A stretch of 64,000 bases of DNA from Parcubacteria bacterium C7867-004 (GCA_001189075.1 LFCN01000006.1:169384-233383), one strand, 5' to 3'. Positions 18,259-42,945 are shown, numbered from the stretch's first letter. Numbers and translations are program-made. Notes: generated by a model from the sequence alone, not told the origin.

Positions 18259-18788
18259 GTATGAACCGCAACCATCAAGGCTATACGCTTCTTGAACTCA
18301 TCGTCTCGGTAGGTATCTTCAGCATGGTGATGCTTATCGTTACGGGCGCGTACCTTGCCCTCATTAGCCTCGACCGGAAGGCGCGGGCCGTGAACGATCT
18401 CTCCTCAAACTTCTCTTTCGCTCTCGATGGCATGACCCGTTCGATACGCACCGGCAAGAACTTTGCGTGCGTGGGCGGGGGAGACGGCACGTGCTCGCAG
18501 ATGTCGTTTCGGGATCCGGACAATAATACGGTGACGTATCTGCTGAAGACGAGCGGCAGTATCGGCCAGTGCACGTCCGGAGTGTGCTCTGATACGTCGG
18601 CGGTAGCGCTTACCGATCCGAGGATACGCATCGATGCGCTCACGTTCTATATACGCGGCTCATCTATTTCGGATGAAGTGCAGCCGCAGGTGATCATCAC
18701 CATCCGCGGGAATATCCTCACCGAAGTGGGTAAGCAGACCAATTTCGCGGTCCAGGCTGCGGCGACCCAGCGCCTTATCGACATATGA
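18255..18788 (+). CDS. Minor (pseudo)pilin
   Basis: NHQG|YTLLELIVSVGIFSMVMLIV prepilin N-terminus. Confidence 0.65.
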   Translation: MSMNRNHQGYTLLELIVSVGIFSMVMLIVTGAYLALISLDRKARAVNDLSSNFSFALDGMTRSIRTGKNFACVGGGDGTCSQMSFRDPDNNTVTYLLKTSGSIGQCTSGVCSDTSAVALTDPRIRIDALTFYIRGSSISDEVQPQVIITIRGNILTEVGKQTNFAVQAAATQRLIDI

Positions 18789-19354
18789 TCATGAATACCC
18801 CGAAAGGCTTTACGCTCGTGGAGACGCTCGTCGCGTTGTCCCTCATCACAATAGCGATGATCGGCCCGTTCCAGTCGGTTGAAAATGCGCTCGCAGCATC
18901 CTATGTCGCGCGTGATCAGATCATCGCAACGAACCTCGCGCAGGAGGGTATTGAGTACGTACGAAGCGTCCGTGATGCCAACTATCTCTATAAGCTCAAT
19001 CACACCACCACGACCCGTACCTGGCTCTATGGGCTTGATGGAACTGATGCTAGTGGAGGAGCGGGTGGCGGAGTGAACTGCATAAGTTCTGACGGCTGCG
19101 TCGTCGATCCGACTCAGAACACGATCGCTGCATGCCCTGCCGGCGTCTGTCCGCCGCTCAGGCTCTCGACCGTGACCTATGTCTATAACCAGTCATCGGT
19201 GACTCCGACCAATCCGGTCACCATATTCACGCGCAAGGTCGTGCTAACCTCGACTGCCGCACACGAGAAGAAGATAACAGTGACCGTGAACTGGATAACT
19301 CGAGGAAAGCCCTATAGCGTAACGGTATCGGAAAGCATCTATAATTGGCTATGA
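18785..19354 (+). CDS. Minor (pseudo)pilin
   Basis: NTPKG|FTLVETLVALSLITIAMIG prepilin N-terminus. Confidence 0.65.
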   Translation: MIMNTPKGFTLVETLVALSLITIAMIGPFQSVENALAASYVARDQIIATNLAQEGIEYVRSVRDANYLYKLNHTTTTRTWLYGLDGTDASGGAGGGVNCISSDGCVVDPTQNTIAACPAGVCPPLRLSTVTYVYNQSSVTPTNPVTIFTRKVVLTSTAAHEKKITVTVNWITRGKPYSVTVSESIYNWL

Positions 19355-20685
19355 TGAATGTCAAACGGAATCCTCGCGGCTTCGCGCTCCTGGTAGCGAT
19401 CATACTGACCTCGGTACTCCTCTCGGTAGGTCTCGCGCTTCTTGATATCGCTTACAAGCAGATCTTGCTCGCGACGACCGCGAAGCAATCGGAGCTCGCG
19501 TTCTATTCGTCCGATACGATCCTCGAGTGCGCACTCTACTGGGACCAACAGTTCAATGCATTCAGCTATGCAGCGCCTGCTGCTAGCATCACCTGCGGAG
19601 GGCAGGTGATCGTGCTTCTGTCGCCACCGAATACGAGCGTCGTCGATGGTAACGTGCGCACCACGACGCTCACGATTCCAACCGCGTCAGGCTCAAGCGG
19701 TACCGTTACTATTTTGAAAGGAAGCGGAGGGGGAACCACGGTCTATGCGACCGGCTATAACAGCGGGAATGCAAGCGACCCGAACCGAACCGAGCGCGGC
19801 CTGAAGGCGGTCTATGGCGATCTTATTGCCACACCGGTGGCTATTCCGCCTCCGCCCTCGACGAGTCGTATATTCACAATAAGTCCAGCGGTGGGAGGGA
19901 GGACGACATGGGATCTCGATGTCCATGGTCCGCTTACCCTAAGCACGGCAGGAACGTGGACCATAGTTCCAAGTTCCACGTTCAGCGCGAGTGTACGGGC
20001 GTGGGGCGCAGGTGGCGGTGGCGGTAGCCCAGGCAGGTTTGATGATACGGGTGAATACCCGTATGGCGGCGGCGGTGGATTCACCTCAGGGACAGTGAGT
20101 ATGCCTTCCGGAGGTTCAATTTCTGTTCTGGTAGGTGGAGGAGGAAGTGGCACTGGTGTTGGGGGAAGCGGCGGAGGCGGAAACGCGAACGCGTTTACGC
20201 AGCATGGCGGAGGTGGCGGTCGTTCTGCGATAACGGTAGCTGCGGTGACCCAGATCGTAGCAGGAGGAGGCGGCGGCGGCGGGTATGATTACAGCGGCGG
20301 AGCGGGAGGTGGTCTCGCAGGACAGAGGTATTCTGCGCCGGGTAGCGGTTTCGGCGGTACCCAGACTGCAGGAGGCGCAGGACCAGGAAACCCAGGAAGC
20401 CTAGGGACGGGCGGTAACGGCATAAATTACACTGGTGGAGGAGGCGGCGGGTATTACGGAGGCGGCAGCGGTAGCTCTCCTTCATATTCGGCGGGTGGTG
20501 GTGGTGGTTCCGGCTACTACGGTGGCACTCTCGTGACCGGAGGCGCAACGACGGCCGGTAGTGGTCAGACTCCGGCAGGAACGACGGATCCCCGATACGG
20601 CAGTTCAGCTGGGCGAGGAGGTGATCCCGGTGGTGGTTTTGGAGACGGAGGAAGCGGAAATCCCGGTCGTATCGTCATCTACTAA
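19345..20685 (+). CDS. PilX-like minor pilin fused to a roughly 250-aa poly-glycine domain
   Basis: RNPRG|FALLVAIILTSVLLSVGLALL N-terminus. The C-terminal half is dominated by GGGGG(S/Y/T) runs (…GGGGGGGYDYSGGAGGG…). Confidence 0.6.
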   Translation: MAMMNVKRNPRGFALLVAIILTSVLLSVGLALLDIAYKQILLATTAKQSELAFYSSDTILECALYWDQQFNAFSYAAPAASITCGGQVIVLLSPPNTSVVDGNVRTTTLTIPTASGSSGTVTILKGSGGGTTVYATGYNSGNASDPNRTERGLKAVYGDLIATPVAIPPPPSTSRIFTISPAVGGRTTWDLDVHGPLTLSTAGTWTIVPSSTFSASVRAWGAGGGGGSPGRFDDTGEYPYGGGGGFTSGTVSMPSGGSISVLVGGGGSGTGVGGSGGGGNANAFTQHGGGGGRSAITVAAVTQIVAGGGGGGGYDYSGGAGGGLAGQRYSAPGSGFGGTQTAGGAGPGNPGSLGTGGNGINYTGGGGGGYYGGGSGSSPSYSAGGGGGSGYYGGTLVTGGATTAGSGQTPAGTTDPRYGSSAGRGGDPGGGFGDGGSGNPGRIVIY

Positions 20686-20721
20686 GCATTGGCGTTTTCG
20701 CAATATTGCGAAACGGCATAG

Positions 20722-22749
<2,028 letters not shown>

Positions 22750-25136: not shown

Positions 25137-25206
25137 AGCGGGGTAGAGGAGAGGTACCTCGGGAGGCTCATAACCTCCAGACGCCGGTTCGATTCCGGCC
25201 CCCGCA
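25137..25206 (+). tRNA. tRNA-Met (CAT), initiator-like, no encoded CCA
   Basis: AGCGGGGTAGAGGAGAGGTACCTCGGGAGGCTCATAACCTCCAGACGCCGGTTCGATTCCGGCCCCCGCA. The 3' end …CCGGCCCCCGCAA matches bacterial fMet tRNA. Position 1 pairs with 72 as an unpaired A·A, and A11:U24 is present. Confidence 0.75.
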
Positions 25207-25210
25207 ACAA

Positions 25211-25250
25211 GATATAAGAAAACCGCCGAAAGGCGGTTTTCTTATATCTC
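25211..25250. terminator. 17-bp perfect palindrome terminator
   Basis: gatataagaaaaccgcc-gaaa-ggcggttttcttatatc. Confidence 0.55.
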
Positions 25251-25323: not shown

Positions 25324-25854
25324 ATGAGCGAAGGACCAGGAAAATATTTCAATAAGGCACCGGTGCCTGAGAGACAGACGCAACAAGAATCTTCCGAGGG
25401 AGAGCGGACCAATCAGGCACTCGGGGAGTTTGCAGCAGCTTTTGGTTTAGATCAGGAAAGGGTCATTAAACACTTTGCGAGCCTGAGTTCAAGGAAAGGA
25501 CCCATGGAAGCAGTCGCTGATCTGTTTAGTGAGGCAGCGCATGTGCAGCATTATGGGCCTGCTGATGCTGGAAAGTATCAAAAGCTCGTTGTTGGGGCGC
25601 TCGGTCCCGGATACACCGCTCTGCTACCCACGCCAGGTCAAACGTTTGACCCAAACATTCACGAAGATACATCGACTGCCACTAAGCAGTGGGATCCGAA
25701 TACGCAGGCGGCATTTGTGCCAAAAATATTTAGTGTCATCTTGCCAGGCATCTCGGGCCCCGAAGGCAGTACGGTCAAAAGTTTGATCTCAACAAGTAGC
25801 AGTAGCTATAGTTTCCTTGCTCAAGAGAGATCCAATCGACGTAAGGCTGCTTAG
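25324..25854 (+). CDS. Hypothetical protein in a lower-GC islet
   Basis: 176 aa with no recognisable motif. Flanked by two near-identical palindromes. Confidence 0.4.
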   Translation: MSEGPGKYFNKAPVPERQTQQESSEGERTNQALGEFAAAFGLDQERVIKHFASLSSRKGPMEAVADLFSEAAHVQHYGPADAGKYQKLVVGALGPGYTALLPTPGQTFDPNIHEDTSTATKQWDPNTQAAFVPKIFSVILPGISGPEGSTVKSLISTSSSSYSFLAQERSNRRKAA

Positions 25855-25865: not shown

Positions 25866-25908
25866 TGATAAGAGAAAACCGCCGAAAGGCGGTTTTCTCT
25901 TTATCATG
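25866..25908. terminator. Palindromic hairpin sharing the core of the 25211 hairpin
   Basis: atgataagagaaaaccgcc-gaaa-ggcggttttctctttatcat. Confidence 0.5.
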
Positions 25909-25982: not shown

Positions 25983-27014
25983 ATGGGAAAAAGTATCTTT
26001 CTTAAGGGATCAAAGCAGCGACCCCGCGTTTCTTCGGAGTACCTGATCATTCCCAATAAATATTCTTTCCAGCTCATACAGAGCGTCAAGACACCGATCG
26101 CGACACCGGTCGCGCAGGAGGCGCATATCGCCGCTGCGGCTCCAGAACCTCTGGCGGCCGAAGCAGTTGCTCCGGTACTGGCTCAAGCGCCGCAGCAAGA
26201 GATTCCGAAAGTAACAGCCAAGCGCATCGAGCAAGAGCCGAAGACTGGCGTCGATGAAAGCAAGAGGCTCTTTCTCCGGCTTGCTGGGGTGGCGGGGCTC
26301 GGCGTGGTCGCGGCGACGGTGCTCCCCAAGAGCGCGCAGGCATATGTCATGGGAAGCTCGCCTACCTCAGGGGTCGTGGGGGTAAAGAACGCGGCCAATA
26401 CGCGTATCGATCCCGCTACAGAAGGTGGCAATCTCGCCTCAATAAAGACGAATACTGATCCGTTCAATGCCTCCGGAGCCGGCGGGTACGTGCGTCAGGA
26501 CTCCACCGGGACCATAGCGAAGGAAACCGGAGGGAATCTCGCGACCATCGCGGGGAAGGATTTCGCTACGCAGGCGACGCTCGCGGAGATCAAGGCGCAG
26601 ACCGACAAGTTCACCTTCAGTGGAAGCAACCTGCTCACATCGGGAGGCGGCGGAGGGGGAGGTGCGGTAACGGTCAACGACACGACCGATACGCAGATAA
26701 ACCCCGCGACCGACGACAGCGCGATGCTGCTGAGAAGGCTTGTGCGCCAAGTCGATTCGCTCGCTGTAGTCGACTCCGCGCAGCGCCAGAAGGTAACGAT
26801 CGATTCGATCACCGGTTCGCTCACGTTGAGCACCATTACGACGGTCGGTACGGTTACGGCTGTTACGACCGTATCGACGGTCACCACCGTCAGCACACTC
26901 ACGTCTGCAACCAACCTCGTTGCGCTCGGCGGCGTCGACGGTCGTTATCTACATATAGATACAGCGAGGAACATGTATGCTAACGGTATTCGCACGAATC
27001 TTCTGTTCTCCTAA
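25983..27014 (+). CDS. Membrane-anchored hypothetical protein with Tat-like signal-anchor and NLAxIKxxTDxF repeats
   Basis: KRLFLRLAGVAGLGVVAATVLPKSAQA hydrophobic segment about 95 aa from ATG 25983. Three repeats (NLASIKTNTDPF, NLATIAGKDF, TLAEIKAQTDKF), a poly-Gly stretch and a T/V-rich tail. The start is uncertain; the track gives 25920. Confidence 0.45.
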   Translation: MGKSIFLKGSKQRPRVSSEYLIIPNKYSFQLIQSVKTPIATPVAQEAHIAAAAPEPLAAEAVAPVLAQAPQQEIPKVTAKRIEQEPKTGVDESKRLFLRLAGVAGLGVVAATVLPKSAQAYVMGSSPTSGVVGVKNAANTRIDPATEGGNLASIKTNTDPFNASGAGGYVRQDSTGTIAKETGGNLATIAGKDFATQATLAEIKAQTDKFTFSGSNLLTSGGGGGGGAVTVNDTTDTQINPATDDSAMLLRRLVRQVDSLAVVDSAQRQKVTIDSITGSLTLSTITTVGTVTAVTTVSTVTTVSTLTSATNLVALGGVDGRYLHIDTARNMYANGIRTNLLFS

Positions 27015-27020
27015 TTTTGC

Positions 27021-29858
27021 ATGGCTGTTACCAACAATCTGAAGCCGCAAGTAGACCTCCCTGTCTGGGAGTGGTGCCGCTTTACGCCTACCGCAACTGT
27101 CGCCCTTTCAGGGATGGCCACAGCCGATGATGGTAGCGCTCGCTTTATCTATTACATCTCCGCTTCCTCGTTCTATCGATATGACACGTACGCCGATGCG
27201 TGGCAGCAGCTCGCGACTCCGAACACTGCTCCATTCGCGGCACTCTCGCTTAGGTATACCGGATTCCGTGGATACCACGGAAGGGTACTGAGTGCGGGCG
27301 CAACCAGCGTGCAGATCGGTGGACTCCGTGGAGCAACGCTCAACGGGAAGACCATAAAGATACTTAGTGGTCCAGGAATAGGCCAGGAGCGCGTACTCAC
27401 GTTCACTGGAGAGACCATCCACGATATGGGTGTGATCACGGCGACGACGACGCTCACGCTTGCTGATTCCACGAAGAAGTGGAAGTTCAATCAGTGGTCG
27501 GGATACGTCGTCGGTATCACGTTCGGCACGGACGCGACCCAATACAAGAAGATCCTCTATAACGATGCAACCACGCTGTATATCAGTGACGCGAACCTCC
27601 AGCCCCACGATCCCTGGAATAACCAGCCGTTCGCTGCGATAGCGCCGTATGCGCTCCCGGTCACGACCGCCGGTTCGCAAGCGCACTTCCAGATTATTTC
27701 CCAGACGTATTCGGTTGATGCGTGGACTGTACAGCCCGACTACCGTTCGAATTACACTACCAATACCGGCGGCGTATACCTATTCTCCGGCTCTAACTCC
27801 GCACCCTTTTTCACGCTCCAGTACTACGACATCATTCATGACTCGTGGCAGACCAAGACCTGTAACCAGGCACTGCTCGCCGCGACGCTCAGTACCGACT
27901 GTACGTTCGAGCGCATGGCCAAGACCGGTACCGCATTCCTCTCCTCCACGGCGACCGCAGGCGCGGCCCGTACGCTCACCGACTCCGTACAGACGATGAC
28001 CGTCGATCGGTATGCGAACTATCGCGTGCTCATAACGGGAGGAACTGGCATCGGCCAGAGCCGCAGGATCATCTGCAACACTGCGACCGTTTTCACGGTG
28101 AACAAGGCGTGGGACACGAATCCGGACGCCACTTCGACCTATGAGATATGGGGAGACTATGACAAGGCGTTCTTCTCCGGTCATGCTGGAGCAGCGATGC
28201 TTCAGTATTCACCTTCAAACGATTTCTGGATGCAGGGTGCCAGCTTCGATGACGGTGTGGTCGCGAACATCGGCGTGAAGATGAGCGGATGGGAAGCACT
28301 CGGTGTGACTACCGGCGCAAGGATCGCCGCGGGCGTGACAGCAGTGAATGCGACCCCGACTGCGGGAGGTACGGGATATTTGGTGGGTGACATCCTGACG
28401 TGTTCGGTGGGCGGTACGGCAGCCCGCGTCATCGTTACAGCCATAGCGCCGACTGGCATCGTGAGTACTATCGAGCTCGTCGCGGCGGGTACCGGCACGG
28501 GCTTTACGACCGGCACCGGTAAGGCGACGACTGGCGGCACCGGCTCCGGCTGCACCATCGAGATAACCTCAGTCGGCGCTACGTGTCTTGTCACTACCGC
28601 TTCCGCAAACTGGTTCAAGACCGGAGACTCAGTAACATTCTCCGGATGTTCTGACAGCGCCTATAACGTCGCACACACCATTCTCGGCGCGGGTTCCACT
28701 ACAACCTTTGATGTCGCGACCTCAGCGGCAGGTTCCATGGCCGCTTCGAACTCGCAGTCGACCACCGTAATCGTCGATGCGTCGAAGAGCTGGACCACGA
28801 ATGAGCATGTCGGAAAGCTCGTACATCTCTCGGTCGCAGGCACTGCTCCTACTGCGCAGATCCGATGGATAACCGCCAATACCGCGACCACACTTACAGT
28901 CGCGACCATAGTCGCGGGAGTGAACGGTACCTCGAAGTACGCTATCTATGATTCGAAAGTGTTCGGTACGGATAATCAGTTCAAGCCCGCCAACCAGCAG
29001 AACTGGGGTCATGCGTCCGGCGGCTCGACCACGACGCTCATCGACGCATCGAAGAGCTGGGTTGTGAATGCCTGGGCAGGGTACAAGCTCCGTATAGAAT
29101 CAGGAACAGGTTTTGCAACCGGCATAATCTCTATCACCTCGAACACAGCGACGACGCTCACCTATACCACCCAGGGATTCACGCCGGACGCGACGACACA
29201 CTACGAGATTGCCGACAGCTGGGGACTCATGACGGCGGCATCGACCACCACCGTAACCGAGACCACGACCAAGAACTGGACAACGAACATGTGGGCAGGA
29301 AAGAGGATTCGCATCACGGGCGGTACCTCGCCGGGGCAGGAGGTAGCGATAACATCGAACACCGCAACCGTCATAACGATGGCAACGGTAACGCTCCCTG
29401 ATACCACCTCTACCTATGCGATACTCGGTGCTCCAGCACGCGGTGCGGGTACTCAGCTTATATGGATATGGGGGAATTCAGACGCAACAACGAAAGGGAG
29501 GTTGATGCTTTCGCCACGAGGCGGCGCTTCGAACACGTTCGATCTCTATGACATACCGACCGCACGGTGGGTGTACGGCTATTTCATATCTCCCCAAGCC
29601 GAGACGTTCACGACAGGATCCATGTATGCGTATGACGGGGAGAATACCGTGTATCTCCAGAAAGACGCGACCGGAAGGGTGTTCGCGTACAATGTATCGA
29701 CCAATGCGGTCAGTGCGCTCGGTACGATCCCGTACGGTCATTCGACCGCTATCATCGGGAACCGAATGGAGATAGTCGAGACCACGGATGGTCTCAAGTA
29801 CCTCTACATGATGCGTCATACGGGATCCGAGATGTGGCGCATGCTCATCTTCTTTTAA
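27021..29858 (+). CDS. 945-aa repeat protein with five copies of a roughly 45-aa module
   Basis: Recurrent (T/L)(A/I/V)D(A/S)(S/T)K(K/S)W(T/K)(T/V)N…W(A/S)G…(I/L)…G(T/G)(G/A)…GQ…I…SNTATT(L/V)T(V/Y) blocks at about aa 145, 310, 600, 675 and 755. No signal peptide. Confidence 0.55.
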   Translation: MAVTNNLKPQVDLPVWEWCRFTPTATVALSGMATADDGSARFIYYISASSFYRYDTYADAWQQLATPNTAPFAALSLRYTGFRGYHGRVLSAGATSVQIGGLRGATLNGKTIKILSGPGIGQERVLTFTGETIHDMGVITATTTLTLADSTKKWKFNQWSGYVVGITFGTDATQYKKILYNDATTLYISDANLQPHDPWNNQPFAAIAPYALPVTTAGSQAHFQIISQTYSVDAWTVQPDYRSNYTTNTGGVYLFSGSNSAPFFTLQYYDIIHDSWQTKTCNQALLAATLSTDCTFERMAKTGTAFLSSTATAGAARTLTDSVQTMTVDRYANYRVLITGGTGIGQSRRIICNTATVFTVNKAWDTNPDATSTYEIWGDYDKAFFSGHAGAAMLQYSPSNDFWMQGASFDDGVVANIGVKMSGWEALGVTTGARIAAGVTAVNATPTAGGTGYLVGDILTCSVGGTAARVIVTAIAPTGIVSTIELVAAGTGTGFTTGTGKATTGGTGSGCTIEITSVGATCLVTTASANWFKTGDSVTFSGCSDSAYNVAHTILGAGSTTTFDVATSAAGSMAASNSQSTTVIVDASKSWTTNEHVGKLVHLSVAGTAPTAQIRWITANTATTLTVATIVAGVNGTSKYAIYDSKVFGTDNQFKPANQQNWGHASGGSTTTLIDASKSWVVNAWAGYKLRIESGTGFATGIISITSNTATTLTYTTQGFTPDATTHYEIADSWGLMTAASTTTVTETTTKNWTTNMWAGKRIRITGGTSPGQEVAITSNTATVITMATVTLPDTTSTYAILGAPARGAGTQLIWIWGNSDATTKGRLMLSPRGGASNTFDLYDIPTARWVYGYFISPQAETFTTGSMYAYDGENTVYLQKDATGRVFAYNVSTNAVSALGTIPYGHSTAIIGNRMEIVETTDGLKYLYMMRHTGSEMWRMLIFF

Positions 29859-29860
29859 TT

Positions 29861-30721
29861 ATGAATATTGATTACCTCACGCAGCTGCTCACGAACCGCC
29901 TCGCAGCCCTCGCGCTCTCCAAAGATCAGGCGTTCCAATCGGGCGACCTTGAGCGCATCAACCTGCTTGATGTGGAGATGGCAGAAGTAGAGAACACCCT
30001 CTCCCAGCTGCGCCTGCTCTCCAATATCACCATCGCGGCGGCTGTCGCGAACACTACTCCTGCGCAGATAGTCTCGACGGGACTCGATGCCGTTCAGAAC
30101 ATTGTTCAGGGACCTTCGGCGGGTGCCGTTATCAACGGCTACGATATCTCCGCGTATGCGACCGATCCGCTCTACGAGCAGAAAGTGCAGGGTATTCTCG
30201 ACGCGATGCCGGCCTTCGTTACCGCCGAAGATATCGATACCTATGTGCAGGAAGCGGCTCCTGGAAGTCCGGTGACCGGCGCGATGATACTTGCCGCTGC
30301 TTCTGAGAACTTGGTCGACTCCCGCCTCATGATGGCGATCATGCGTAACGATTCGCAATTTGGTACGCAGGGCGTCGGCGCGAGGACCAATAACCCGGGT
30401 AACGTCGGAAATACGGGCACTTCAGAGCAGATGTATCCTTCCTGGGACGAAGGCGTGCGTGCGGGCGCCGAGTGGCTCAGCCGTCATCGCGCGGTAGCTC
30501 CCGTTGCACAAGAGATCGTCATCGAGCCGGTTCCCGAACCAGCACCTACTCCCGCGCCTAAAAAGACCCGGAAGCTCAATATCAAGGTAGAGGAGGATCC
30601 CCGCGTAGATCCCATACCTCCTGTCGAGACCCCTATAGACATCGTTCCGGTTGAAGAGGTGCCGCAAGCGACCACTACCCCGGCCCTTCCTGAAGACCCG
30701 GCGACCACCACCCCCTCGTAG
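29861..30721 (+). CDS. Hypothetical protein with a Pro-rich C-terminal tail
   Basis: Start moved to ATG 29861, immediately after the upstream stop. Internal RTNNPGNVGNTG…YPSWDEGVRAGAEWL segment and a C-terminal PEPAPTPAP…PVEEVP low-complexity tail. Confidence 0.45.
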   Translation: MNIDYLTQLLTNRLAALALSKDQAFQSGDLERINLLDVEMAEVENTLSQLRLLSNITIAAAVANTTPAQIVSTGLDAVQNIVQGPSAGAVINGYDISAYATDPLYEQKVQGILDAMPAFVTAEDIDTYVQEAAPGSPVTGAMILAAASENLVDSRLMMAIMRNDSQFGTQGVGARTNNPGNVGNTGTSEQMYPSWDEGVRAGAEWLSRHRAVAPVAQEIVIEPVPEPAPTPAPKKTRKLNIKVEEDPRVDPIPPVETPIDIVPVEEVPQATTTPALPEDPATTTPS

Positions 30722-30743: not shown

Positions 30744-31475
30744 ATGGAGGAGATCGAGGTCTACATCGCTAAGTACGGGCATTACCTGGAGGAGATACGG
30801 AAGCGGATTTACCGCATCGTTATTGTCTATATCGTCGCGTTCCTCGCGGGACTCTTCTCGACGAATCTGTTCGTGCGCTTCTTCATAACGTATCTCAATG
30901 TCGATAACGTGACGATCGTCGCGACTTCGCCGTTTCAGCTGCTTGATCTGGCAATGAGTATCGGGTTCTTCCTTGCGACCATAGTAACCATCCCGTTCGC
31001 CATCCAACAGATCTATTCGTTCCTCAGTGGGGGACTGCTGCCGCACGAGCGAAGGATATTCTTCACACTTATCCCGCTCTCGGTGCTGCTGTTCCTCGTC
31101 GGTTTCACCTACGGGTTCGGGGTCATGTACTACGCGGTAGAGGTCATTGCGCAAGTGAACGTGAGCTTCGGGATAACTAACCTCTGGAACGTCAGCCATT
31201 TCATATCCCAGATGCTGATCACGGCGGCCCTGCTCGGCATGATATTCGAGTTCCCAATCATGCTCACGCTCCTCATACGCATCGGCCTCTTCCCGGTGTC
31301 CTTTTTACGCCGTAAAAGGCGCATTGCTATGGCCGCGATCTTCGTTTTTGTTGCTTTACTTCCCCCAACCGACGGGCTATCCTTTATGATAATGTCCTTG
31401 CCGCTCGTGGGGATATATGAGCTCACTATCGTGCTCAATTCCTTCTACAAGCGGAAAGAACCCTTAGAAACATAA
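30744..31475 (+). CDS. tatC: Twin-arginine translocase subunit TatC
   Basis: HLEEIRKRIYRIVIVYIVAF N-terminal signature with six TM helices. Confidence 0.85.
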   Translation: MEEIEVYIAKYGHYLEEIRKRIYRIVIVYIVAFLAGLFSTNLFVRFFITYLNVDNVTIVATSPFQLLDLAMSIGFFLATIVTIPFAIQQIYSFLSGGLLPHERRIFFTLIPLSVLLFLVGFTYGFGVMYYAVEVIAQVNVSFGITNLWNVSHFISQMLITAALLGMIFEFPIMLTLLIRIGLFPVSFLRRKRRIAMAAIFVFVALLPPTDGLSFMIMSLPLVGIYELTIVLNSFYKRKEPLET

Positions 31476-31487: not shown

Positions 31488-31655
31488 ATGTTCGGACTCG
31501 GATCAAATGAACTGATAATCATCGCAGTCATACTCGTGCTCCTCTTTGGTGCGACCCGCATCCCGGCGCTCACTAAGGGCATCGCGCAGGCAATTCGCGA
31601 GCTTCGCGGCGCGTTCAAGGACGAAGAGTTCAGCGACGAGAAGAAAAAGTCTTAG
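31488..31655 (+). CDS. tatA: Twin-arginine translocase subunit TatA/E
   Basis: MFGLGSNELIIIAVILVLLFGATRIP… followed by an amphipathic helix. 55 aa, below the ORF-track length cutoff. Confidence 0.7.
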   Translation: MFGLGSNELIIIAVILVLLFGATRIPALTKGIAQAIRELRGAFKDEEFSDEKKKS

Positions 31656-31789
31656 TCTCTCCTCCGAGGGACGGATTTTTGTATGAGATATCCGCCAGGA
31701 ATGGCGGGTATAGAGCGCTTCATGAACGTGCGATGATGCTAGAATCATATAGGTAGCGGCTTTCAGTAGGGAAGTGGTGGCGACGGTGC

Positions 31790-34700
31790 ATGAACCTATA
31801 TTTTTCGCATACAAAAACGAGCCGCTCTGCCGCACTATCGGTATTCTTCCCTGTGCTCTTCGCGGCGCTCATGGTTCCCGTCGGCGTCTTTGCCGACTAT
31901 CAGGAATACCTGCCGGGTACGGCAGTGAATATAGGGGAGTTCGTGTATGACGATGATTTCCAGGCGACCACCACGGCCAACTGCATCGTCACGGTCTATG
32001 ACCCGACGGGGGCGGTAGCGGTGAATGCGGCTGCGATGACGGCGACGGCCAACAGCTGGTATTCCTATTCGTTCACGCCGGACTCGATCGAAGGCACCTG
32101 GCCTTCAGAAATGTCCTGTGGTTCAGCGCTTTCAGGCGATCTCGTAAAAGGGGACAAGACATTCGTCGTAACGTCGAATATCGTCTCTTCTTCATCAGTA
32201 GCGGCCCTCGTGAATGCGAACACGAACACGGTAGTGGCATCCGCCAGCTCCTCGCTTGCGTCCACGCTTCCGGCGTCGATATGGAGCTACTCGGGGCGCA
32301 CGCTCACCTCGTTCGGTACGTTAGTTGCCGATATCTGGGCGAACGGCACGCGATCGCTCACCTCGGGCGTCGCTATTGCGAATGATATCTGGGCTGCAAC
32401 GACGCGCACTCTTACCGGAGCCGGACTCGACTCAGGCTCACTCGCCACGCAGTCTGACGTAACGACTGCTTCCTCATCTCTTGGAAGCGCCATAACGACT
32501 GAGACTGCGGCAGTTAATGCCAATACCAACGCAACGGTCGCAACCGCCTCAAGCTCGATTGCCGCAGTCGTAAACGCGAACACAAACACGCAGGTCCTCA
32601 CTGCTTCCACGTCACTCGGCTCGACGCTTGCTTCCATCGGCTCGAGCATAACGAATATCCCGACGGCGGTCTGGGCAGCAGGTACTCGTACACTCACGGG
32701 CTTTGGAACACTCGCGTCTGACGTATGGGTAAATGGAACACGCACCCTTACCGGAGCCGGGCTCGACTCGGGATCACTCGCAACGCAGTCTGACGTAACG
32801 ACCGCCTCTTCATCGCTCGGAAGCGCGATTGCGGCTGAGACATTGGCGGTCAACACCAACACAAATACGCAAGTCTTAACTGCTTCCACATCGCTTGGTT
32901 CAACCCTCACTTCGATTACCGGCTCGATTGCAGGTATACCTGCTGCTGTCTGGGCCGCGGGCACTCGCAGTCTAACGACATTCGGCACGCTCGCCTCTGA
33001 CGTATGGGCAAGCGGCACGAGGACGCTCACGGGCGCAGGGCTCTCGTCCGGCTCGCTCGCTACTCAGACTGACGTGACGACTGCTTCCTCGTCGCTCGGG
33101 AGCGCTATTACCGCCGAAACCGCCGCAGTTAACGCGAACACTAATGCAACCGTCCTTGCTGCGAGTACGTCACTTGCATCCAATATCAATGCAAACACGA
33201 ATCTTCAAGTCTTAACCGCTTCAACATCTCTAGGTTCAACCCTCACCTCAATTGCAGGTTCCATCACCGGTATTCCGGCGGCAGTCTGGGCCGCGGGATC
33301 TCGTACTCTCACCGGCTTCGGCACACTCGCATCTGATGTATGGTCTGTCGGTACCCGTACTCTTACTGGCGCAGGACTTTCGTCCGGTTCGCTTGCAACG
33401 CTTAGCGACGTAACAACCGCGTCTTCATCGCTCGGCTCTGCTATCACGGTTGAAACCGCTGCCGTGAATGCGAATACGAACTCTGCTATCGGTACGGCAA
33501 GTTCTTCGCTGGCCGCGGTTATTAACGCGAACACAAACACGCAGGTCCTCACGGCCTCCACCTCGCTCGGCTCAACACTCGCTTCGATCGGCTCCAGCAT
33601 AACGAATATTCCAACTGCGGTATGGGCGGCAGGAACTCGAAGCCTCACGACCTTTGGCACACTCGCATCTGATGTCTGGTCTGTCGGTACACGCACGCTC
33701 ACCGGCGCAGGTCTCTCCTCCGGCTCGCTCGCTACTCAGACTGACGTGACAACCGCGTCTTCCTCACTCGGAAGCGCTATTACGGCTGGCACCGTTGCGG
33801 TTAATGCGAACACGAATGCAACGGTTGCCAATGCATCAAGCTCGATCGCGGCTGTAGTGAACGCGAACACCAACACGCAGGTCCTCACCGCTTCATCCTC
33901 GCTCGGCGCATCCATAGCGGCTGTTCCACTCTCCGTCTGGAACGTCGCATCCTCTTCGCTCAATGTCGCCGGATCGATTGGAAAGCAACTCGCGCTTAAT
34001 GTTGACGCGGCGATTTCGAGTGTCACGGGAGGTGTCGGATCTCTCACTGCTGCCGACGTATGGTCATACGCGACGCGCACACTCACCGGAGCCGGCCTCG
34101 ACTCGGGATCACTCGCGACGCAGTCTGATGTAACCACCGCGTCCTCTTCGATCGCCGCCGTTGTTAACGGCAACACGAATACGCAGGTCGCAGCCGGAAC
34201 CGCGAGCGTGAACGGAACGATCGGAACCGCCTCGAGCTCGATTGCGGCTGTAGTGAACGCGAACACCAACACGCAGGTCCTCACCGCTTCTACCTCGATT
34301 GGCTCGACACTCTCTTCGATCGGTTCGAGCATAACGAATATCCCGACCGCGGTATGGGCAGCGGGCACCCGTACTCTCACCGGCTTCGGCACACTCGCAT
34401 CTGATGTATGGTCTGTCGGTACCCGCACCCTTACTGGCGCAGGACTATCAAGCGGTTCGCTCGCTACGCTTAGCGACGTAACGACCGCTTCGTCTTCGCT
34501 TGGAAGTGCTATTACGGCTGGAACCGCGAGCGTGAACGCGAACACGAATGCAACGGTGCTTACTGCGTCTTCTTCACTCGCAACGGTGATCAATGCGAAC
34601 ACCAACACGCAGGTTCTGACTGCTTCAACCTCTATCGGTTCGACCCTCACCTCGATTACCGGCTCAATCGCCGGTATTCCAGCGGCAGTCTGGGCCGCGG

Positions 34701-36031
34701 GATCTCGTACCCTCACGGGCTTTGGAACCCTCGCGTCTGACGTGTGGGCGAGCGGTACCAGGACGCTCACGGGAGCTGGTCTCTCCAGTGGCTCGCTCGC
34801 TACGCTTAGCGACGTAACAACCGCCTCTTCATCCGTTGCCGCTTCCGTGAATGCGAATACCAACACGCAGGTTGCCGCAGGGACCGCGAGCGTGAACAGC
34901 AATACCAACGCGGTCGTGCTCGCCGCCTCGACATCGGTCGCGGCATCGGTGAACGCGAATACCAATACCGTCATCACTACCGCGTCTAGCTCGCTCGCCG
35001 CTTCTATAGCCGCGATTCCTACCAACGTATGGGCTGCCGGTACGCGCAGTCTGACGACCTTTGGAACGCTCGCGACCGATGTCTGGAGTGCAGCGACGCG
35101 TACCCTCACGTCGCTTACGCTCTCATCCTCGTCGCCGTGGACCGTGACGATGTCCGACTTCGGCACTATCTCCGCGGGAGACAACTATCTCGCAACGGTG
35201 AACACGCTCTATAACGGAACGCTCACGGATTCGGCGAACCTGCCGACCATCACGGTCTACGATCCGAGCCGCAACGTTATAGTTTCTTCAGCCGCGATGA
35301 CGCGCACAGGAGTCGGTAGCTATACCTACTCCTACACGACGAGCGTGAGCGCCGAGGGCGGCGTATGGGAGAGCGCCATCTCAGCGACGGTTGAGACCGG
35401 AAAGACTCTTCCGGGCAACGACTACTGGAACGTCACGACCTCACCGCCGCAGGTCTTCATAAACAGCGTGACCTCGACCGTCGTGCCGAACATCACTGCG
35501 AGCGTCCGCGTTACGAACGAGGGTGACGTCGCCTACGAGTACCCTTACGAGTGGTGCGTCGTTGCTGATATCAGCAACTCCTGCGGCGGGGGAGACGATA
35601 CGTACTACGCATCGGCTGCGAAGCTGATCGCACCCGGAGAGAACTTCGATACAGTGCTGACCGCGACCGTGCCGGTAACTGGGGTCTACTACTTTAAGGT
35701 TGCCGTCTACTACGGCACCGAAGTCTCGCGTGCATCCCGCCTCTTTACCGCGACCGCAGCGGGAACCCCTGGTACCGGTGGGGGAGGTGGTGGAGGAGGA
35801 GGTGGCGGAGGTGGCGGAGGCGATGATCCGGCTCCGGCAGCAGGCTCCTGCGAGGATCGCGTGCGCGCGGACATCAACTGCGATGGCCGAGTGAACGGCG
35901 TCGACTTCTCGATGCTGCTCGCATTCTGGAAGACCTCTGCTCCGTACCGAAATCCGCGCGTCGACCTCAACCGGGACGCGAAGGTGGATTCCGTCGACTT
36001 CTCGATACTCCTCTATAGCTGGACCCGATAA
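31790..36031 (+). CDS. Giant secreted tandem-repeat surface protein with a C-terminal dockerin-like module
   Basis: Signal peptide MNLYF…VPVGVFADYQ. About ten repeats of 94-112 aa. A (Gly)17 linker. C-terminal DINCDGRVNGVDFSMLLAFWKT and DLNRDAKVDSVDFSILLYSWTR duplicated Ca-loop/helix segments, as in type-I dockerins. Confidence 0.7.
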   Translation: MNLYFSHTKTSRSAALSVFFPVLFAALMVPVGVFADYQEYLPGTAVNIGEFVYDDDFQATTTANCIVTVYDPTGAVAVNAAAMTATANSWYSYSFTPDSIEGTWPSEMSCGSALSGDLVKGDKTFVVTSNIVSSSSVAALVNANTNTVVASASSSLASTLPASIWSYSGRTLTSFGTLVADIWANGTRSLTSGVAIANDIWAATTRTLTGAGLDSGSLATQSDVTTASSSLGSAITTETAAVNANTNATVATASSSIAAVVNANTNTQVLTASTSLGSTLASIGSSITNIPTAVWAAGTRTLTGFGTLASDVWVNGTRTLTGAGLDSGSLATQSDVTTASSSLGSAIAAETLAVNTNTNTQVLTASTSLGSTLTSITGSIAGIPAAVWAAGTRSLTTFGTLASDVWASGTRTLTGAGLSSGSLATQTDVTTASSSLGSAITAETAAVNANTNATVLAASTSLASNINANTNLQVLTASTSLGSTLTSIAGSITGIPAAVWAAGSRTLTGFGTLASDVWSVGTRTLTGAGLSSGSLATLSDVTTASSSLGSAITVETAAVNANTNSAIGTASSSLAAVINANTNTQVLTASTSLGSTLASIGSSITNIPTAVWAAGTRSLTTFGTLASDVWSVGTRTLTGAGLSSGSLATQTDVTTASSSLGSAITAGTVAVNANTNATVANASSSIAAVVNANTNTQVLTASSSLGASIAAVPLSVWNVASSSLNVAGSIGKQLALNVDAAISSVTGGVGSLTAADVWSYATRTLTGAGLDSGSLATQSDVTTASSSIAAVVNGNTNTQVAAGTASVNGTIGTASSSIAAVVNANTNTQVLTASTSIGSTLSSIGSSITNIPTAVWAAGTRTLTGFGTLASDVWSVGTRTLTGAGLSSGSLATLSDVTTASSSLGSAITAGTASVNANTNATVLTASSSLATVINANTNTQVLTASTSIGSTLTSITGSIAGIPAAVWAAGSRTLTGFGTLASDVWASGTRTLTGAGLSSGSLATLSDVTTASSSVAASVNANTNTQVAAGTASVNSNTNAVVLAASTSVAASVNANTNTVITTASSSLAASIAAIPTNVWAAGTRSLTTFGTLATDVWSAATRTLTSLTLSSSSPWTVTMSDFGTISAGDNYLATVNTLYNGTLTDSANLPTITVYDPSRNVIVSSAAMTRTGVGSYTYSYTTSVSAEGGVWESAISATVETGKTLPGNDYWNVTTSPPQVFINSVTSTVVPNITASVRVTNEGDVAYEYPYEWCVVADISNSCGGGDDTYYASAAKLIAPGENFDTVLTATVPVTGVYYFKVAVYYGTEVSRASRLFTATAAGTPGTGGGGGGGGGGGGGGGDDPAPAAGSCEDRVRADINCDGRVNGVDFSMLLAFWKTSAPYRNPRVDLNRDAKVDSVDFSILLYSWTR
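32400..35110 (+). repeat. In-frame tandem DNA repeats (282-336 bp units, about 10 copies, highly similar)
   Basis: Recurring blocks such as gcgaacac(c/a)aacacgcaggtcctcac…tctgacgt(a/g)ac(a/g)ac(c/t)gc. The encoded unit is TASSSLGSAI…AVNANTNTQVLTASTSLGSTL…IPAAVWAAGTRTLTGFGTLASDVW…GTRTLTGAGLSSGSLATQSDVT. Confidence 0.7.
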
Positions 36032-36033: not shown

Positions 36034-36891
36034 ATGAACACTATGACCCTCCGCGTACTCATCGTTCTCCTCGCTCTCTCGGTTCTCCCGCAGGGGGTCG
36101 GGGCCGCGGCATTCCTCGTGACTCCTGACGCGGCAACCGTTGGTCAGGAATTCGCGGCGACCATGAGCTTCGCTCCCCAGGGCGAGGCTGTGAATGCAGT
36201 CGAGGGGTCGCTCAAAATACCGGAGGGACTCAGCGTCGTTCGCGTAAGCACGGGAGGCTCAGCACTCGCGCTCTGGCCTGTGTCGCCTGCGTTCTCGCTC
36301 TCGGACCGGACGGTTACGTTCGTCGGAGGAAGTCCTGGCGCGGGACTGCCTGCCGATAGCTCCTCGCTTCTTTTCACGCTCTATCTCAAGGCAGCCGCAC
36401 CGGGAACGTATTCGATCGAGTCTTCCGCAGTGTCCGGTTTCAAAGCTGACGGCACCGGCGACCGTGTCGCTGTTGCCGTCGAGCCCGTCTCGGTCATCGT
36501 TGGTTCGGAAGCGGTCAAATCGACGGCGAAAGCTGATCACGCTGCACCGAACTCGCTCACCGTCGCACTCGGAAGCGATACATCGCTCTTCGATGGTGCG
36601 CCGTTCGTCTCCTTCTTCGCGAGCGACGCGGGAAGCGGCATAGCCGCGTATCAAGCGAAGGAAGGATGGTTCGGCGCGTATAAGCCGGTAGATCGGTACT
36701 ACGTCCTGGCTGACGCAAGTGCCAAGCAGCCGGTATGGATACGCGCGATAGACGCGGAGGGCAACAAGCGTACGGTGCACGTGAAGGGAACCGGTGACAC
36801 GCTCTACTACGCCGGTCTCCTAGCTCTTCCGGTCCTGCTGCTTTTGCTCATCATCGCGTTTCTGGTTTACCGTTTCCGCCCGCGACCATAA
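36034..36891 (+). CDS. Membrane-anchored cohesin-like domain protein 1
   Basis: Signal peptide, then …FLVTPDAATVGQEFAATMSFAPQGEAVNAVEGSLKIPEGLSVVRVSTGGS…, a cohesin-like pattern. C-terminal TM anchor LLALPVLLLLLIIAFLVY. Confidence 0.5.
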   Translation: MNTMTLRVLIVLLALSVLPQGVGAAAFLVTPDAATVGQEFAATMSFAPQGEAVNAVEGSLKIPEGLSVVRVSTGGSALALWPVSPAFSLSDRTVTFVGGSPGAGLPADSSSLLFTLYLKAAAPGTYSIESSAVSGFKADGTGDRVAVAVEPVSVIVGSEAVKSTAKADHAAPNSLTVALGSDTSLFDGAPFVSFFASDAGSGIAAYQAKEGWFGAYKPVDRYYVLADASAKQPVWIRAIDAEGNKRTVHVKGTGDTLYYAGLLALPVLLLLLIIAFLVYRFRPRP

Positions 36892-38336
36892 TGAAAAGAT
36901 TCCTCATCTTCTTGCTCCTCGCTCTGTCGCTTCCCGCGACCTCGCATGCGGCAACGATGAGCCTCATTCCGTCCGATACTACGGTTGATACCGGGGATAT
37001 CGTCACGGTCCGTGTAGTGGTTAATCCGGGGGGCACGGCGGTGAACAATGCCGAAGCGGTAGTGAGGTTCCCGGCGGGTGTTCTCGAGGTTCTTTCTGTA
37101 AGCAAAGCTGGCTCGATGTTCCCGCTCTGGGTAGAGGATCCGAGCTTCTCGAACGGGGCGGGGACGGTGTCTTTTAACGGAGGCGTTCCGAACCCGGGCG
37201 TCTCGAGCGCGGGCACGGCGCTCTCGATAAGCTTTCATGCGGTTCGAGCAGGTACCGCGTCCTTGTCGCTTTCGGAAGCGGCAGTACGTGCGAACGACGG
37301 TCTCGGTACCGATGTCCTCACCGGCTCCTCAGGAACGCAGATCACGATCTTATCCGCTTCAGCGCCCGTTACTCCCACTACACCTGTACCGACTGCACCT
37401 GCTACTGGTACGGGAGCTGCGCCGGTGAGCGCAGGACCGATAGCGATCTCTTCGCCGACACACCCCGACTCGAATATCTGGTACGCAAATACCACCCCGT
37501 CCTTCACCTGGTCACTGCCGAAGGGGGCAACCGGCGTATCGCTCGGCATCGATCAATCGCCAGCAGCGGCACCTGGTGTCACCTACACCACCGCGATAAC
37601 CGAGAAGACCGTTGCATCGCTTGAAGACGGCACCTGGTACTTCCGCATGAAGTATCGCTCGGGAGGAGCCTGGAGCACGATAAGCTCCTACAAGGTTCAG
37701 ATTGATTCCAGTTTGCCTGAGATAACAAATCACACGGTCCTCTATGACGAGACAGAGCGCGCAGTTCTAATTGAGGTAGCGGGAACCGATTCAGGATCGG
37801 GCATTGAGCGGTACGATGTCTCGATAGACGGCGCTGAGCCGATCTCGGTCCCAGCGAGCAAGTTTGATGGAAAGTCGCAGTCTTTCCCGGTTCGCTCCTC
37901 CGGCATCCATAAAGTGACCATAACCGCGATAGATCACGCCGGGAACCGGGTGAGCGTCGAGAACTCCTTCTCGGTATCGCAATCGCTGAGCAATCAGCCG
38001 CTGTTCTTCATCGGCTCATTCGGCGTGAGTCTCCTGGCGGTGCTTCTTGCCATGAGTCTCTTCTCGATGATCTCGCTCATCGCGGCGCTCTTCGCCTGGT
38101 TCACGCTCATCTACTACCGCCATCGGAAGCATCCGACCGTTCCGGCGGTGCGTAAGGACATGCACGAGGGCTTCCTTAAGATTAAGTCGAATATGGAGAT
38201 AGATATCCGGGCGCTTGATAGGGCACGCATGAAGCGCGAGCTCTCGCGGGAGGAGGCGATGCTCTACCGCAGGCTAGTTGCCAACGTGTCTGCCCTCGAG
38301 CGTCATATGGACAGGATACTGGATGATATGGATTAG
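36891..38336 (+). CDS. Membrane-anchored cohesin-like domain protein 2 with Ig-like middle region and cytoplasmic tail
   Basis: Signal peptide. SLIPSDTTVDTGDIVTVRVVVNPGGTAVNNAEAVVRFPAGVLEVLSVSKAGSMFPLWVEDPSF…GTASLSL follows the cohesin beta-sandwich pattern. TM at about aa 375-400, then a charged cytoplasmic tail. Confidence 0.55.
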   Translation: MKRFLIFLLLALSLPATSHAATMSLIPSDTTVDTGDIVTVRVVVNPGGTAVNNAEAVVRFPAGVLEVLSVSKAGSMFPLWVEDPSFSNGAGTVSFNGGVPNPGVSSAGTALSISFHAVRAGTASLSLSEAAVRANDGLGTDVLTGSSGTQITILSASAPVTPTTPVPTAPATGTGAAPVSAGPIAISSPTHPDSNIWYANTTPSFTWSLPKGATGVSLGIDQSPAAAPGVTYTTAITEKTVASLEDGTWYFRMKYRSGGAWSTISSYKVQIDSSLPEITNHTVLYDETERAVLIEVAGTDSGSGIERYDVSIDGAEPISVPASKFDGKSQSFPVRSSGIHKVTITAIDHAGNRVSVENSFSVSQSLSNQPLFFIGSFGVSLLAVLLAMSLFSMISLIAALFAWFTLIYYRHRKHPTVPAVRKDMHEGFLKIKSNMEIDIRALDRARMKRELSREEAMLYRRLVANVSALERHMDRILDDMD

Positions 38337-38359
38337 GTTCTATCATCAATTACTCAAAA

Positions 38360-42937: not shown

Positions 42938-42945
42938 CAAAGCAC

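Follow-up and report, generated by a model that had tools for sequence, protein, structure and literature searches.

A phage-tail-related three-gene cassette beside tatC and tatA in Parcubacteria, a candidate cell-surface device

We investigated a three-gene cluster of Parcubacteria bacterium C7867-004 within a stretch of 64,000 nt (hereafter the window, with coordinates counted from its first letter). An earlier reading of the same DNA, made from the sequence alone (hereafter the original prediction), had described three unusual proteins encoded between a tRNA gene and tatC and had considered them a candidate envelope or phage-derived module. Open reading frame (ORF) calls bear out the three genes, named here P1, P2 and P3, at the coordinates then proposed and with the gaps then noted, P2 following P1 after 6 nt and P3 following P2 after 2 nt (Table 1). 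The cluster is followed after 22 nt by tatC and, after a further 12 nt, by tatA, encoding components of a twin-arginine translocation (Tat) system. The neighboring tatC had been correctly recognized (Pfam, E = 4e-38), while tatA at 31488-31655 had been overlooked. Both products score under the NCBIfam equivalog cut-offs and the Tat system is therefore a divergent one. A hairpin and T-run after tatA, found by a consensus scan, likely mark the end of a P1-P2-P3-tatC-tatA transcription unit. Homology and gene order show a phage tail cassette fixed in a conserved operon of Candidate Phyla Radiation (CPR) bacteria, where it comes with a Tat-type signal, a putatively wall-directed domain and the adjacent tatAC genes.

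Table 1. Features of the cluster and its neighborhood in the window
Feature	Position	Strand	Description
tRNA-Met (CAT)	25137-25208		predicted tRNA, ~0.8 kb upstream of P1
P1	25983..27014	+	ORF, 343 aa, 35.3 kDa
P1 Tat-like signal peptide/anchor KRLFLRLAGVAGLGVVAATVLPKSAQA	26262..26342	+	residues 94-120, AxA site after residue 120
P1 C-terminal domain	26664..27011	+	residues 228-343; tblastn and hidden Markov model (HMM) homology to phage small protein (Pam2 gp65)
P2	27021..29858	+	ORF, 945 aa, 100.2 kDa, all-beta; homologue of phage virion protein Pam2 gp66
P2 repeat module 1	27450..27584	+	residues 144-188; HMM i-E-value 8e-12
P2 repeat module 2	27972..28154	+	residues 318-378; HMM i-E-value 1.3e-14
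P2 repeat module 3	28761..28958	+	residues 581-646; HMM i-E-value 6e-32, HMM seed copy
P2 repeat module 4	29028..29225	+	residues 670-735; HMM i-E-value 2e-31, HMM seed copy
P2 repeat module 5	29247..29435	+	residues 743-805; HMM i-E-value 6e-30, HMM seed copy
P3	29861..30721	+	ORF, 286 aa, 30.4 kDa, pI 4.2
P3 N-terminal helical segment	29861..30034	+	residues 1-58; HMM and tblastn homology to 51-66 aa phage protein (Pam2 gp67)
P3 lysozyme-like domain	30287..30487	+	residues 143-209; Pfam Glucosaminidase/GH73-like (PF01832)
tatC	30744..31475	+	243 aa; Pfam TatC E 4.2e-38
tatA	31488..31655	+	55 aa; Pfam TatA_B_E E 2.2e-11
Terminator-like hairpin (31655-31672) and T-run after tatA	31655..31682	+	consensus scan only
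F5	31790..36031	+	1413 aa; Pfam Dockerin_1 E 1.5e-6, MG2-like N-terminus; family in 18/24 cellular loci
F6a	36034..36891	+	285 aa; signal, C-terminal membrane anchor, cohesin/Ig-like family; F6 in 12/24 cellular loci
F6b	36891..38336	+	481-aa F6a paralogue: cohesin-like N-terminus, OmpL47-type barrel domain, C-terminal coiled region

The cassette in phages and in cells

Full-length relatives of P2, with 35-59% identity, were found in 64 viral loci of IMG/VR. Among 50,697 GenBank phage records there was a single one, gene 66 of the cultured Pseudanabaena siphophage Pam2 (ON014754.1; located at 19986-22613 of our locus L068), the product of which is 39% identical to P2 over 89% of the query. Both Pam2 gp65 and gp66 have been found in virions by mass spectrometry (PMC9382816 Table S2). 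We called ORFs in 93 sequences, comprising 92 fetched loci and a 27-kb slice of the window, and clustered their products. In 59 viral loci, an HMM of P1 residues 228-343 matched the gene that immediately precedes P2 and encodes a protein of ~100-190 aa (median 134 aa; Pam2 gp65, E = 8e-28); in 21 viral loci, an HMM of P3 residues 1-58 matched a gene of 51-66 aa that immediately follows P2 (Pam2 gp67, E = 3e-6). The phage cassette, made of a small protein, a protein of ~945 aa and one of ~55 aa, thus has the same order as P1-P2-P3. Given these matches and their positional agreement, a single phage cassette is either the source of the three window proteins or shares its ancestry with them.

The genes around the viral copies belong to phage tails. 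In Pam2, the block reads distal tail protein, collagen-like protein, minor tail subunit, gp65, gp66, gp67, gp68 and gp70. Proteins with an Mtd_N tail-fiber N-terminus are encoded up to three genes upstream in 17 of the 44 non-redundant viral loci. Other viral neighbors include a relative of the L-shaped tail-fiber assembly protein (phrog_1084/3304) and LamG-type virion proteins, and one viral group has T4 gp13, gp14 and gp15 beside the cassette. From these neighbors, the contigs are therefore phages, and the search for phage structural genes near P2 found the same-order cassette among tail genes both in viral loci and in Pam2. P2 homologues also occur in phage-like contigs of 182 and 353 kb, L002 (GCA_027484465.1 JAIXSX010000044.1) and L001/L013, near genes for PAAR, BubE, a muramidase, Tad2-like and Gp80 proteins and giant genes of 1474-1895 aa or more; these contigs may represent huge phages of CPR or other hosts.

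The cellular set comprised 24 loci, namely the window and 23 loci from a scan of one genome per GTDB species, mostly CPR/Patescibacteria metagenome-assembled genomes (MAGs). Their common order is a P1-like gene (207-390 aa), P2 (944-2330 aa), a P3-like gene (178-423 aa), tatC, in some cases tatA, and then one gene of family F5 and two of family F6, both described below. P1 was found upstream in 20 loci, P3 downstream in 19, TatC in 18, F5 in 18, F6 in 12 and TatA in 11, and the missing features mostly fall at contig ends. Among the cellular loci with a P3 homologue and downstream room, 17 have the start of tatC 12-51 nt behind P3; in one further locus tatC lies behind tatA, and one locus has 1.3 kb of room without tatC. 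In P0025, a further relative (70% identity; two contigs, read from gene tables), tatC-tatA lie divergently upstream. Overall, about 20 CPR genomes keep the arrangement, even where P2 identity has dropped to 28-35%. Several loci of the series L083-L091 also carry, between P1 and P2, a second P1 paralogue that has no signal and resembles the phage small protein.

Three additions distinguish the cellular cassettes from the viral ones. A Tat-like motif (KRxFLK…AxA) is present in 20 of 25 cellular P1-type proteins, the other five being second paralogues or truncated copies, and in none of 59 viral ones. The lysozyme-like NPGN domain is found in 19 of 20 cellular P3-type proteins, against 0 of 21 viral ones, and a tatC gene is adjacent in 18 of the 24 cellular loci, against 0 of the 44 non-redundant viral loci. 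As one of two alternatives, the original prediction had considered a novel surface apparatus that leaves the cell through the neighboring Tat system. This is strongly favored by comparative genomics, through the restriction of the motif to cellular copies and the close, recurrent spacing of tatC, while export itself is a step that we infer. None of the three proteins belongs to a characterized family, and their linkage is conserved in related genomes.

In a quick neighbor-joining tree of 70 P2 sequences, indicative only, viral clades are interspersed with those of Tat-linked copies, of which there are three or more, and the clade of the window P2 is nested among viral sequences of 945 aa. The window P2 is also 57-59% identical to several viral copies, compared with 28-50% to other Tat-linked cellular copies. 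Together, the interleaved tree and the higher identity to viral copies suggest repeated exchange of P2 between phages and cells.

Architecture of P1, P2 and P3

The ATG start of P1 is backed by a homologous N-terminus in the orthologue of Parcubacteria strain C7867-008 and by a conserved YSF(R/K)LV motif. Its Tat-like segment, SKRLFLRLAGVAGLGVVAATVLPKSAQA (residues 93-120), is the sole complete Tat-like motif within the window. The signal reads S-K-R-L-F-L-R, compared with the S/T-R-R-x-F-L-K Tat motif, and continues with a moderately hydrophobic, uncharged h-region and a c-region with an AxA signal-peptidase site (LAGVAGLGVVAATVLPKSAQA, the site preceding Y). The family consensus is D-x-x-K-R-x-F-L-K-x-A-G-V-A-G-L-G...P-K-x-A-E-A, with a G/A-rich h-region followed by P-K and then A-x-A. 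Among the 69 of 120 homologues that met a strict motif filter, F of KRxFLK is kept in 100%, L in 85% and K in 84%.

The remainder of P1 combines repeats with a phage-related C-terminus. Two clear repeats of the NLAxIK..TD.F type and one variant lie at residues 148-161, 183-194 and 198-212, so that the original prediction of three NLAxIKxxTDxF repeats holds for two of them and only loosely for the third; the Tat-like segment, the poly-Gly (G7) tract and the T/V-rich stretch (residues 281-311) that it described are all present. The AlphaFold2 monomer model places helices at 92-112 (the signal region), in the repeats, where they are short, and at 241-277 and 321-341, where they are long, but with a pLDDT of 54 it is poor and uninformative, as expected for a stalk or a partner-dependent protein. 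At least 285 homologues were found, spread over Parcubacteria lineages that include Sungbacteria, Taylorbacteria and Campbellbacteria. P1 has no family in Pfam, NCBIfam, PHROGs or PADLOC and no match in a PDB sequence search. Transposase matches at E = 0.04-0.16 come from its helical C-terminal part and were set aside as noise.

P2 contains five significant copies of one module (HMM i-E-values 8e-12 to 6e-32) and a partial sixth at residues 108-144. The original prediction had counted five modules of roughly 45 aa; the number stands, while the ~45 aa prove to be the conserved core of a unit of ~63-66 aa. As had also been proposed, P2 has neither a signal peptide nor a recognized family, with no hydrophobic N-terminus and no match above threshold in sequence searches of Pfam, NCBIfam, PHROGs, PADLOC and the PDB. 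An AlphaFold2 model built from a 51-sequence alignment is nearly all beta, with a mean pLDDT of 90.3 and a pTM of 0.90, and confidently predicts a Kelch-type six-bladed beta-propeller core. In this model, P2 is a propeller core into which, or onto the end of which, five ~65-aa modules and a Gly-rich region are inserted or appended. At the sequence level, the Kelch signal stays below the Pfam gathering score and covers one repeat only (Kelch_3, 15.6 bits versus 22; Kelch_1, 14.0 versus 20.1), and a few P2 homologues carry a precomputed PF01344 match. A Foldseek search of the model against the PDB gave no match with TM >0.12, and the single match in BFVD is a homologue (TM 0.93) annotated "uncharacterized", with nothing else similar; as modeled, the architecture as a whole is without a solved relative. 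A reading of P2 as a sialidase or Asp-box enzyme is unsupported, Kelch propellers ranking above sialidases and no motif being found, and no other catalytic signature was found in P2 either.

P2 forms a large and even family. A word-index search returned at least 692 homologues, nearly all of 938-972 aa, with identity down to 56% among the first 120, and an exhaustive profile search returned 6520 cluster representatives at E<=1e-3, 347 of them at E<=1e-30. The alignment of 51 sequences contains 98 invariant columns, a degree of conservation that appears unlike that of a fast-evolving receptor-binding tip. The window P2 is 100% identical to a protein on a 686-kb contig of C7867-004. Its product name at NCBI, "flagellar hook-length control protein FliK", is contradicted by the absence of any FliK/Flg_hook match in Pfam or NCBIfam and of flagellar genes, and by the all-beta fold. 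The "FliK" name of Pam2 gp66 was itself taken from its best BLAST match, which is this Parcubacteria P2 (E = 4e-60; PMC9382816 Table S2). Because the name of gp66 was transferred from the window protein, the label is circular and baseless, and the error corrected here has by now also entered a phage genome. The name "Mucin-2 precursor" used in C7867-008 is likewise spurious.

We placed the start of P3 at ATG 29861 rather than at the upstream GTG 29834 because all homologues begin with MNI or MDI. P3 has no signal peptide. The NNPGN segment and Pro-rich tail of the original prediction are real, the segment lying within a lysozyme-like domain with a Pfam Glucosaminidase match (E = 2.8e-7; 31.7 bits versus a cut-off of 30.2) that covers about two-thirds of the Pfam model; besides this match, P3 has no family in Pfam, NCBIfam, PHROGs or PADLOC and no match in a PDB sequence search. 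PF01832 is matched by 35 of 36 P3 homologues (best E = 3.7e-9), and NNPGNVGNTG...WDEGV..AEWL is the most conserved part of the domain. The P3 family profile aligns to the catalytic helix of MltC, with AIMQnDS in P3 facing AIMQtES (LxLAIMQxES). The tail is rich in Pro and Thr, with a basic cluster at its end in many homologues, of which at least 329 were found in Parcubacteria lineages such as Sungbacteria, Taylorbacteria and Campbellbacteria.

Downstream surface proteins and genomic surroundings

Behind tatC and tatA, the window encodes a trio of putative surface proteins, F5, F6a and F6b, conserved at this position in most cellular loci. In F5, long Ser/Thr/Ala repeats and a G15 tract accompany a Sec-type signal and a dockerin at the C-terminus. 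Members of the F6 family bear signals and membrane anchors at the C-terminus; 5 of 24 members match Cohesin (best E = 2.9e-7) and 8 of 24 match Big_13. The combination suggests a dockerin-cohesin surface fiber. A phage origin of F5 and F6 was rejected, as neither has PHROG matches.

The cluster is flanked upstream by ligA, gatC and gatA, and downstream, after tatC, tatA and the surface proteins, by a histidine kinase and a response regulator forming a two-component system. Its position after a tRNA and a lower-GC gene, noted in the original prediction, was recovered, with a GC content of 0.49 in the kilobase at 25-26 kb compared with ~0.57-0.59 in the surrounding DNA. An identical palindromic hairpin of 20 nt, AAACCGCCGAAAGGCGGTTT, occurs at 25220-25239 and 25876-25895, with 0 expected by chance, and brackets an orphan, lower-GC ORF of 176 aa (25324-25854) between tRNA-Met and P1. 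This ORF has no family match and no counterpart beside P2 at any other locus, and the bracketed region resembles a small inserted segment or a terminator duplication. Together with an upstream ORF of 198 aa, it was considered as a member of the system and rejected, both being without family matches and absent from all other loci.

Further upstream lie type IV pilus-like genes, including a prepilin peptidase (16814-17596) and an N-methyl pseudopilin (18785-19354), and among them a 446-aa protein with an ALK/LTK-type glycine-rich domain (19345-20685). Two blocks of low GC, at 38000-43000 (0.39-0.47) and 60000-64000 (0.36-0.44) compared with ~0.57 elsewhere in the window, may be islands. The first contains the histidine kinase (38360-40342, - strand) and the response regulator (40398-41066, - strand) and ends near a tRNA-Met and a tRNA-Asp at 42.7-42.9 kb.

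Proposed export, alternatives and known systems

The cluster products probably build a new kind of cell-surface device. Taken as a whole, we consider it an even call that they are a domesticated phage tail module exported in the folded state by TatAC, with P2 and P3 hitchhiking on P1; the domestication itself is shown by homology, synteny and the cell-specific fusions. On this view, the ancestral phage cassette consists of the small helical protein, the 945-aa beta-propeller protein and the ~55-aa helical protein, encoded beside tail-fiber genes. In cells, the small protein acquired an N-terminal extension with a Tat-type signal and fiber-like repeats and became P1, the ~55-aa protein was extended by a lysozyme-like domain and by a wall-spanning tail rich in Pro and Thr and became P3, and the tatC-tatA pair came to lie directly downstream. 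P1, P2 and P3 would then take on their folds and come together in the cytoplasm, as is necessarily the case for their phage relatives, and cross the membrane as a complex of ~150-165 kDa through the co-encoded TatAC, with P1 as the sole carrier of a signal. Once outside, P1 could serve as a stalk, anchored if its signal is not cleaved, P2 as a lectin-like propeller head, and P3 could bind or cut peptidoglycan.

The export route and the function are what we infer from this arrangement. Since P2 and P3 lack signals, P3 appears wall-directed, the phage relatives fold in the cytoplasm and the operon itself encodes a translocase of folded proteins, Tat export of a preassembled complex would be the most economical route. 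Hitchhiking through Tat occurs naturally with two components in HybOC and three in PaoABC (PMC4273604). Tat dependence, suggested by the genomic linkage to tatC and tatA, and a surface location of P1-P2-P3 would both be part of this model. The likely role would be adhesion to, or engagement of, the envelope of a partner cell. CPR bacteria are generally credited with an episymbiotic lifestyle. It is because of this lifestyle, the lectin-like propeller, the wall-directed P3 and the co-conserved dockerin and cohesin proteins that we propose such a role, which is speculative. A bolder version, that a dedicated TatAC pushes a prefolded, phage-tail-derived complex of at least 150 kDa across the membrane by three-component hitchhiking on a KR signal and thereby forms an organelle that grips, and perhaps breaches, the partner wall, with its head gene repeatedly swapped with phage tail modules, seems doubtful to us.

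Several observations weigh against this proposal. The putative physical P1-P2-P3 complex has gene adjacency as its ground, conserved at 59 or more phage loci and 20 or more cellular ones. The signal is unusual, with a KR pair in 60 of the 69 filtered homologues (~87%) and RR in 9, and with the motif 30-110 residues from the N-terminus (10-111 as the wider range), a remote position by the standards of Tat signals; the segment might be no more than an ordinary signal-anchor. KR is tolerated, but among native signals TtrB is the only known case, and changing RR to KR slows export in most bacteria (PMC6708511). The size is a further difficulty, as Tat cargo has been reported up to about 150 kDa (PMC6708511) and a 1:1:1 complex would amount to about 153-166 kDa, at that upper limit, while P2 variants of 1270-2330 aa, or a trimeric assembly, would exceed it. 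Such Tat-linked P2 proteins exist in L083-L091 (for example L085, 8840-15830, and also L083, L088 and L090) and strain the hitchhiker model. The monomer model of P1 contributes little, the propeller matches of P2 are generic, and the tree is no more than indicative. In P3, D164-S165 is invariant across 36 sequences where lytic transglycosylases have the catalytic E-S, and hydrolase activity is uncertain because the position of the catalytic Glu is Asp in every homologue. Finally, the full CPR-type order appears in MAGs labeled Gammaproteobacteria or Bdellovibrionales (L077, L081, L082, L091 and L092), whose labels are probably mis-binned or mis-assigned.

Alternatively, only P1 would be exported, through Tat or as a Sec/YidC signal-anchor, with P2 and P3 staying in the cytoplasm or leaving by another route and the adjacency of tatAC reflecting P1 alone or substrates encoded elsewhere in the genome. 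In favor of this are the size of the complex, 153-166 kDa at 1:1:1 and far more with P2 of 1270-2330 aa compared with a limit of ~150 kDa, the non-canonical signal, with its KR motif and long n-region, and the deduction of a complex from adjacency. We nevertheless regard it as unlikely. The part of P1 with homology to the phage partner of P2 lies past the signal, on the exported side; a signal-less P3 with a peptidoglycan-directed fold and a Pro/Thr-rich tail would need a non-classical route; and the five genes stay within 2-22 nt of one another despite deep divergence. Somewhat less likely again is an anti-phage device, in which a displayed copy of a phage tail tip would mask or occupy a receptor, in the manner of superinfection exclusion, or act as a decoy. 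The mingling of viral with cellular clades in the P2 tree, seen three or more times, and the closeness of the window P2 to viral rather than to Tat-linked cellular copies, which suggest repeated exchange with phages, would suit such a device. They have to be set against the lack of a PADLOC match for P1, P2, P3, F5, F6a, F6b and the two upstream orphan genes, against a conservation of P2 in sequence and length that is unlike that of receptor-binding proteins in an arms race, against the constant linkage to dockerin and cohesin surface proteins and the core-like chromosomal position, and against the hosts of many cassette phages, which are not CPR bacteria (for example Pseudanabaena).

The lysozyme-like domain of P3, the conserved adjacency to F5 and F6 and the pilus genes upstream in the window speak for an envelope-biogenesis or housekeeping module, with the P2 propeller acting as a lectin or glycosidase and P3 as a hydrolase of the cell's own wall, for example opening a FlgJ-like passage for F5/F6 fibers or pili. 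We find this improbable: the occurrence of the whole trio, in unchanged order, in phage tail modules would be left unexplained, P2 revealed no catalytic signature, and Asp replaces the catalytic Glu in P3. The original prediction had also raised a tail-fiber-like or receptor-binding remnant of a prophage. As a decaying remnant, the locus would hold cryptic tail-fiber genes beside a tRNA gene, without cellular function. Kinship with phage tails was confirmed by Pam2 and the same-order counterparts. The phage homology of all three genes is in keeping with that idea, as is their location, 0.8 kb past tRNA-Met and behind the low-GC orphan gene that has an identical 20-nt hairpin on either side. 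A decaying remnant is nonetheless largely refuted and, to us, barely credible. No integrase, capsid, terminase, tail-tube or other phage gene lies nearby, and the flanks are housekeeping genes; the ORFs are intact and highly conserved (89-57% identity, hundreds of homologues); the gene order with tatC recurs in 18 cellular loci with differing upstream neighbors, the arrangement being kept in ~20 CPR genomes; and the cell-specific domain fusions are conserved. An island at the tRNA was rejected on similar grounds, the only repeat found bracketing the 176-aa orphan and not the cluster. As for incorporation of the cellular products into virions, there are no virion genes in the window, and the cellular copies carry export and wall-directed additions instead.

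We found no prior description of this operon in the literature on CPR bacteria, Tat and phage tail proteins; for Paceibacteria, the presence of TatA and TatC has merely been noted (PMC9166423). The cluster offers a concrete candidate both for the attachment of Parcubacteria/Paceibacteria to partner cells and for their Tat substrates. If export of a domesticated tail module by TatAC is true, it would represent a new route of phage-gene domestication, starting from a tail-accessory module instead of a contractile machine, as well as a second natural class of KR Tat signals and one of the largest Tat cargoes known. It would also define a large, unclassified family of phage virion proteins (6520 cluster representatives, without a Pfam or PHROG entry) with a propeller-plus-modules fold.

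Individual parts of the locus can be set beside known systems. The Kelch/NHL six-bladed propellers, such as the Kelch domains of KLHL12 and LZTR1 and the Ralstonia fucose lectin, share 8-15% sequence identity with P2, but ~70% of P2 lies outside the propeller, in the five ~65-aa modules and a Gly-rich double-barrel region. P3 shares a Pfam match and the catalytic-helix alignment with GH73 glucosaminidases and family-1 lytic transglycosylases of the FlgJ and MltC types, from which it differs by the fusion to a phage-derived N-terminal helix, the lack of a signal peptide and the change of Glu to Asp. F5, which ends in a dockerin, and the F6 proteins, cohesin-like or Ig-like and with a membrane anchor, resemble cellulosome-type surface assemblies built on cohesin and dockerin; unlike these, the locus has no carbohydrate-active enzymes, its cohesin signal is weak (5 of 24), and the trio is tied to P1-P3 by synteny only.

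At the level of the whole system, tailocins and pyocins, extracellular contractile injection systems (eCIS), including the Photorhabdus virulence cassettes (PVC), and type VI secretion systems come nearest in concept, being likewise phage tail genes fixed in cells for cell-cell interaction, with fibers exchanged with phages. They are contractile or flexible tubes with genes for sheath, tube and baseplate, released by lysis or anchored from inside, whereas the Parcubacteria locus, for which we propose a Tat route, comprises just three tail-accessory genes and lacks those for tube, sheath and baseplate. In the Tat hitchhiker complexes PaoABC and HybOC of E. coli, one subunit bears the signal and its signal-less partners from the same operon are co-exported folded, as proposed here for P1-P3. 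The known hitchhikers are, however, cofactor-containing redox enzymes with RR signals and with the tat genes elsewhere in the genome, while P1-P3 would be a cofactor-less, phage-derived cargo, mostly with KR, with tatAC in its own operon and with a size at or above the known limit. Pam2 gp65-66-67 comprises the same three families in the same order, gp65 corresponding to the C-terminus of P1, gp66 to P2 and gp67 to the N-terminus of P3. The Pam2-type phage versions, themselves uncharacterized proteins in Pam2, have no Tat-like signal, fiber-repeat extension, lysozyme-like domain or tatAC neighbor. Altogether, the closest analogues are the Pam2 gp65-67 cassette for ancestry and the Tat hitchhiker complexes for mechanism.

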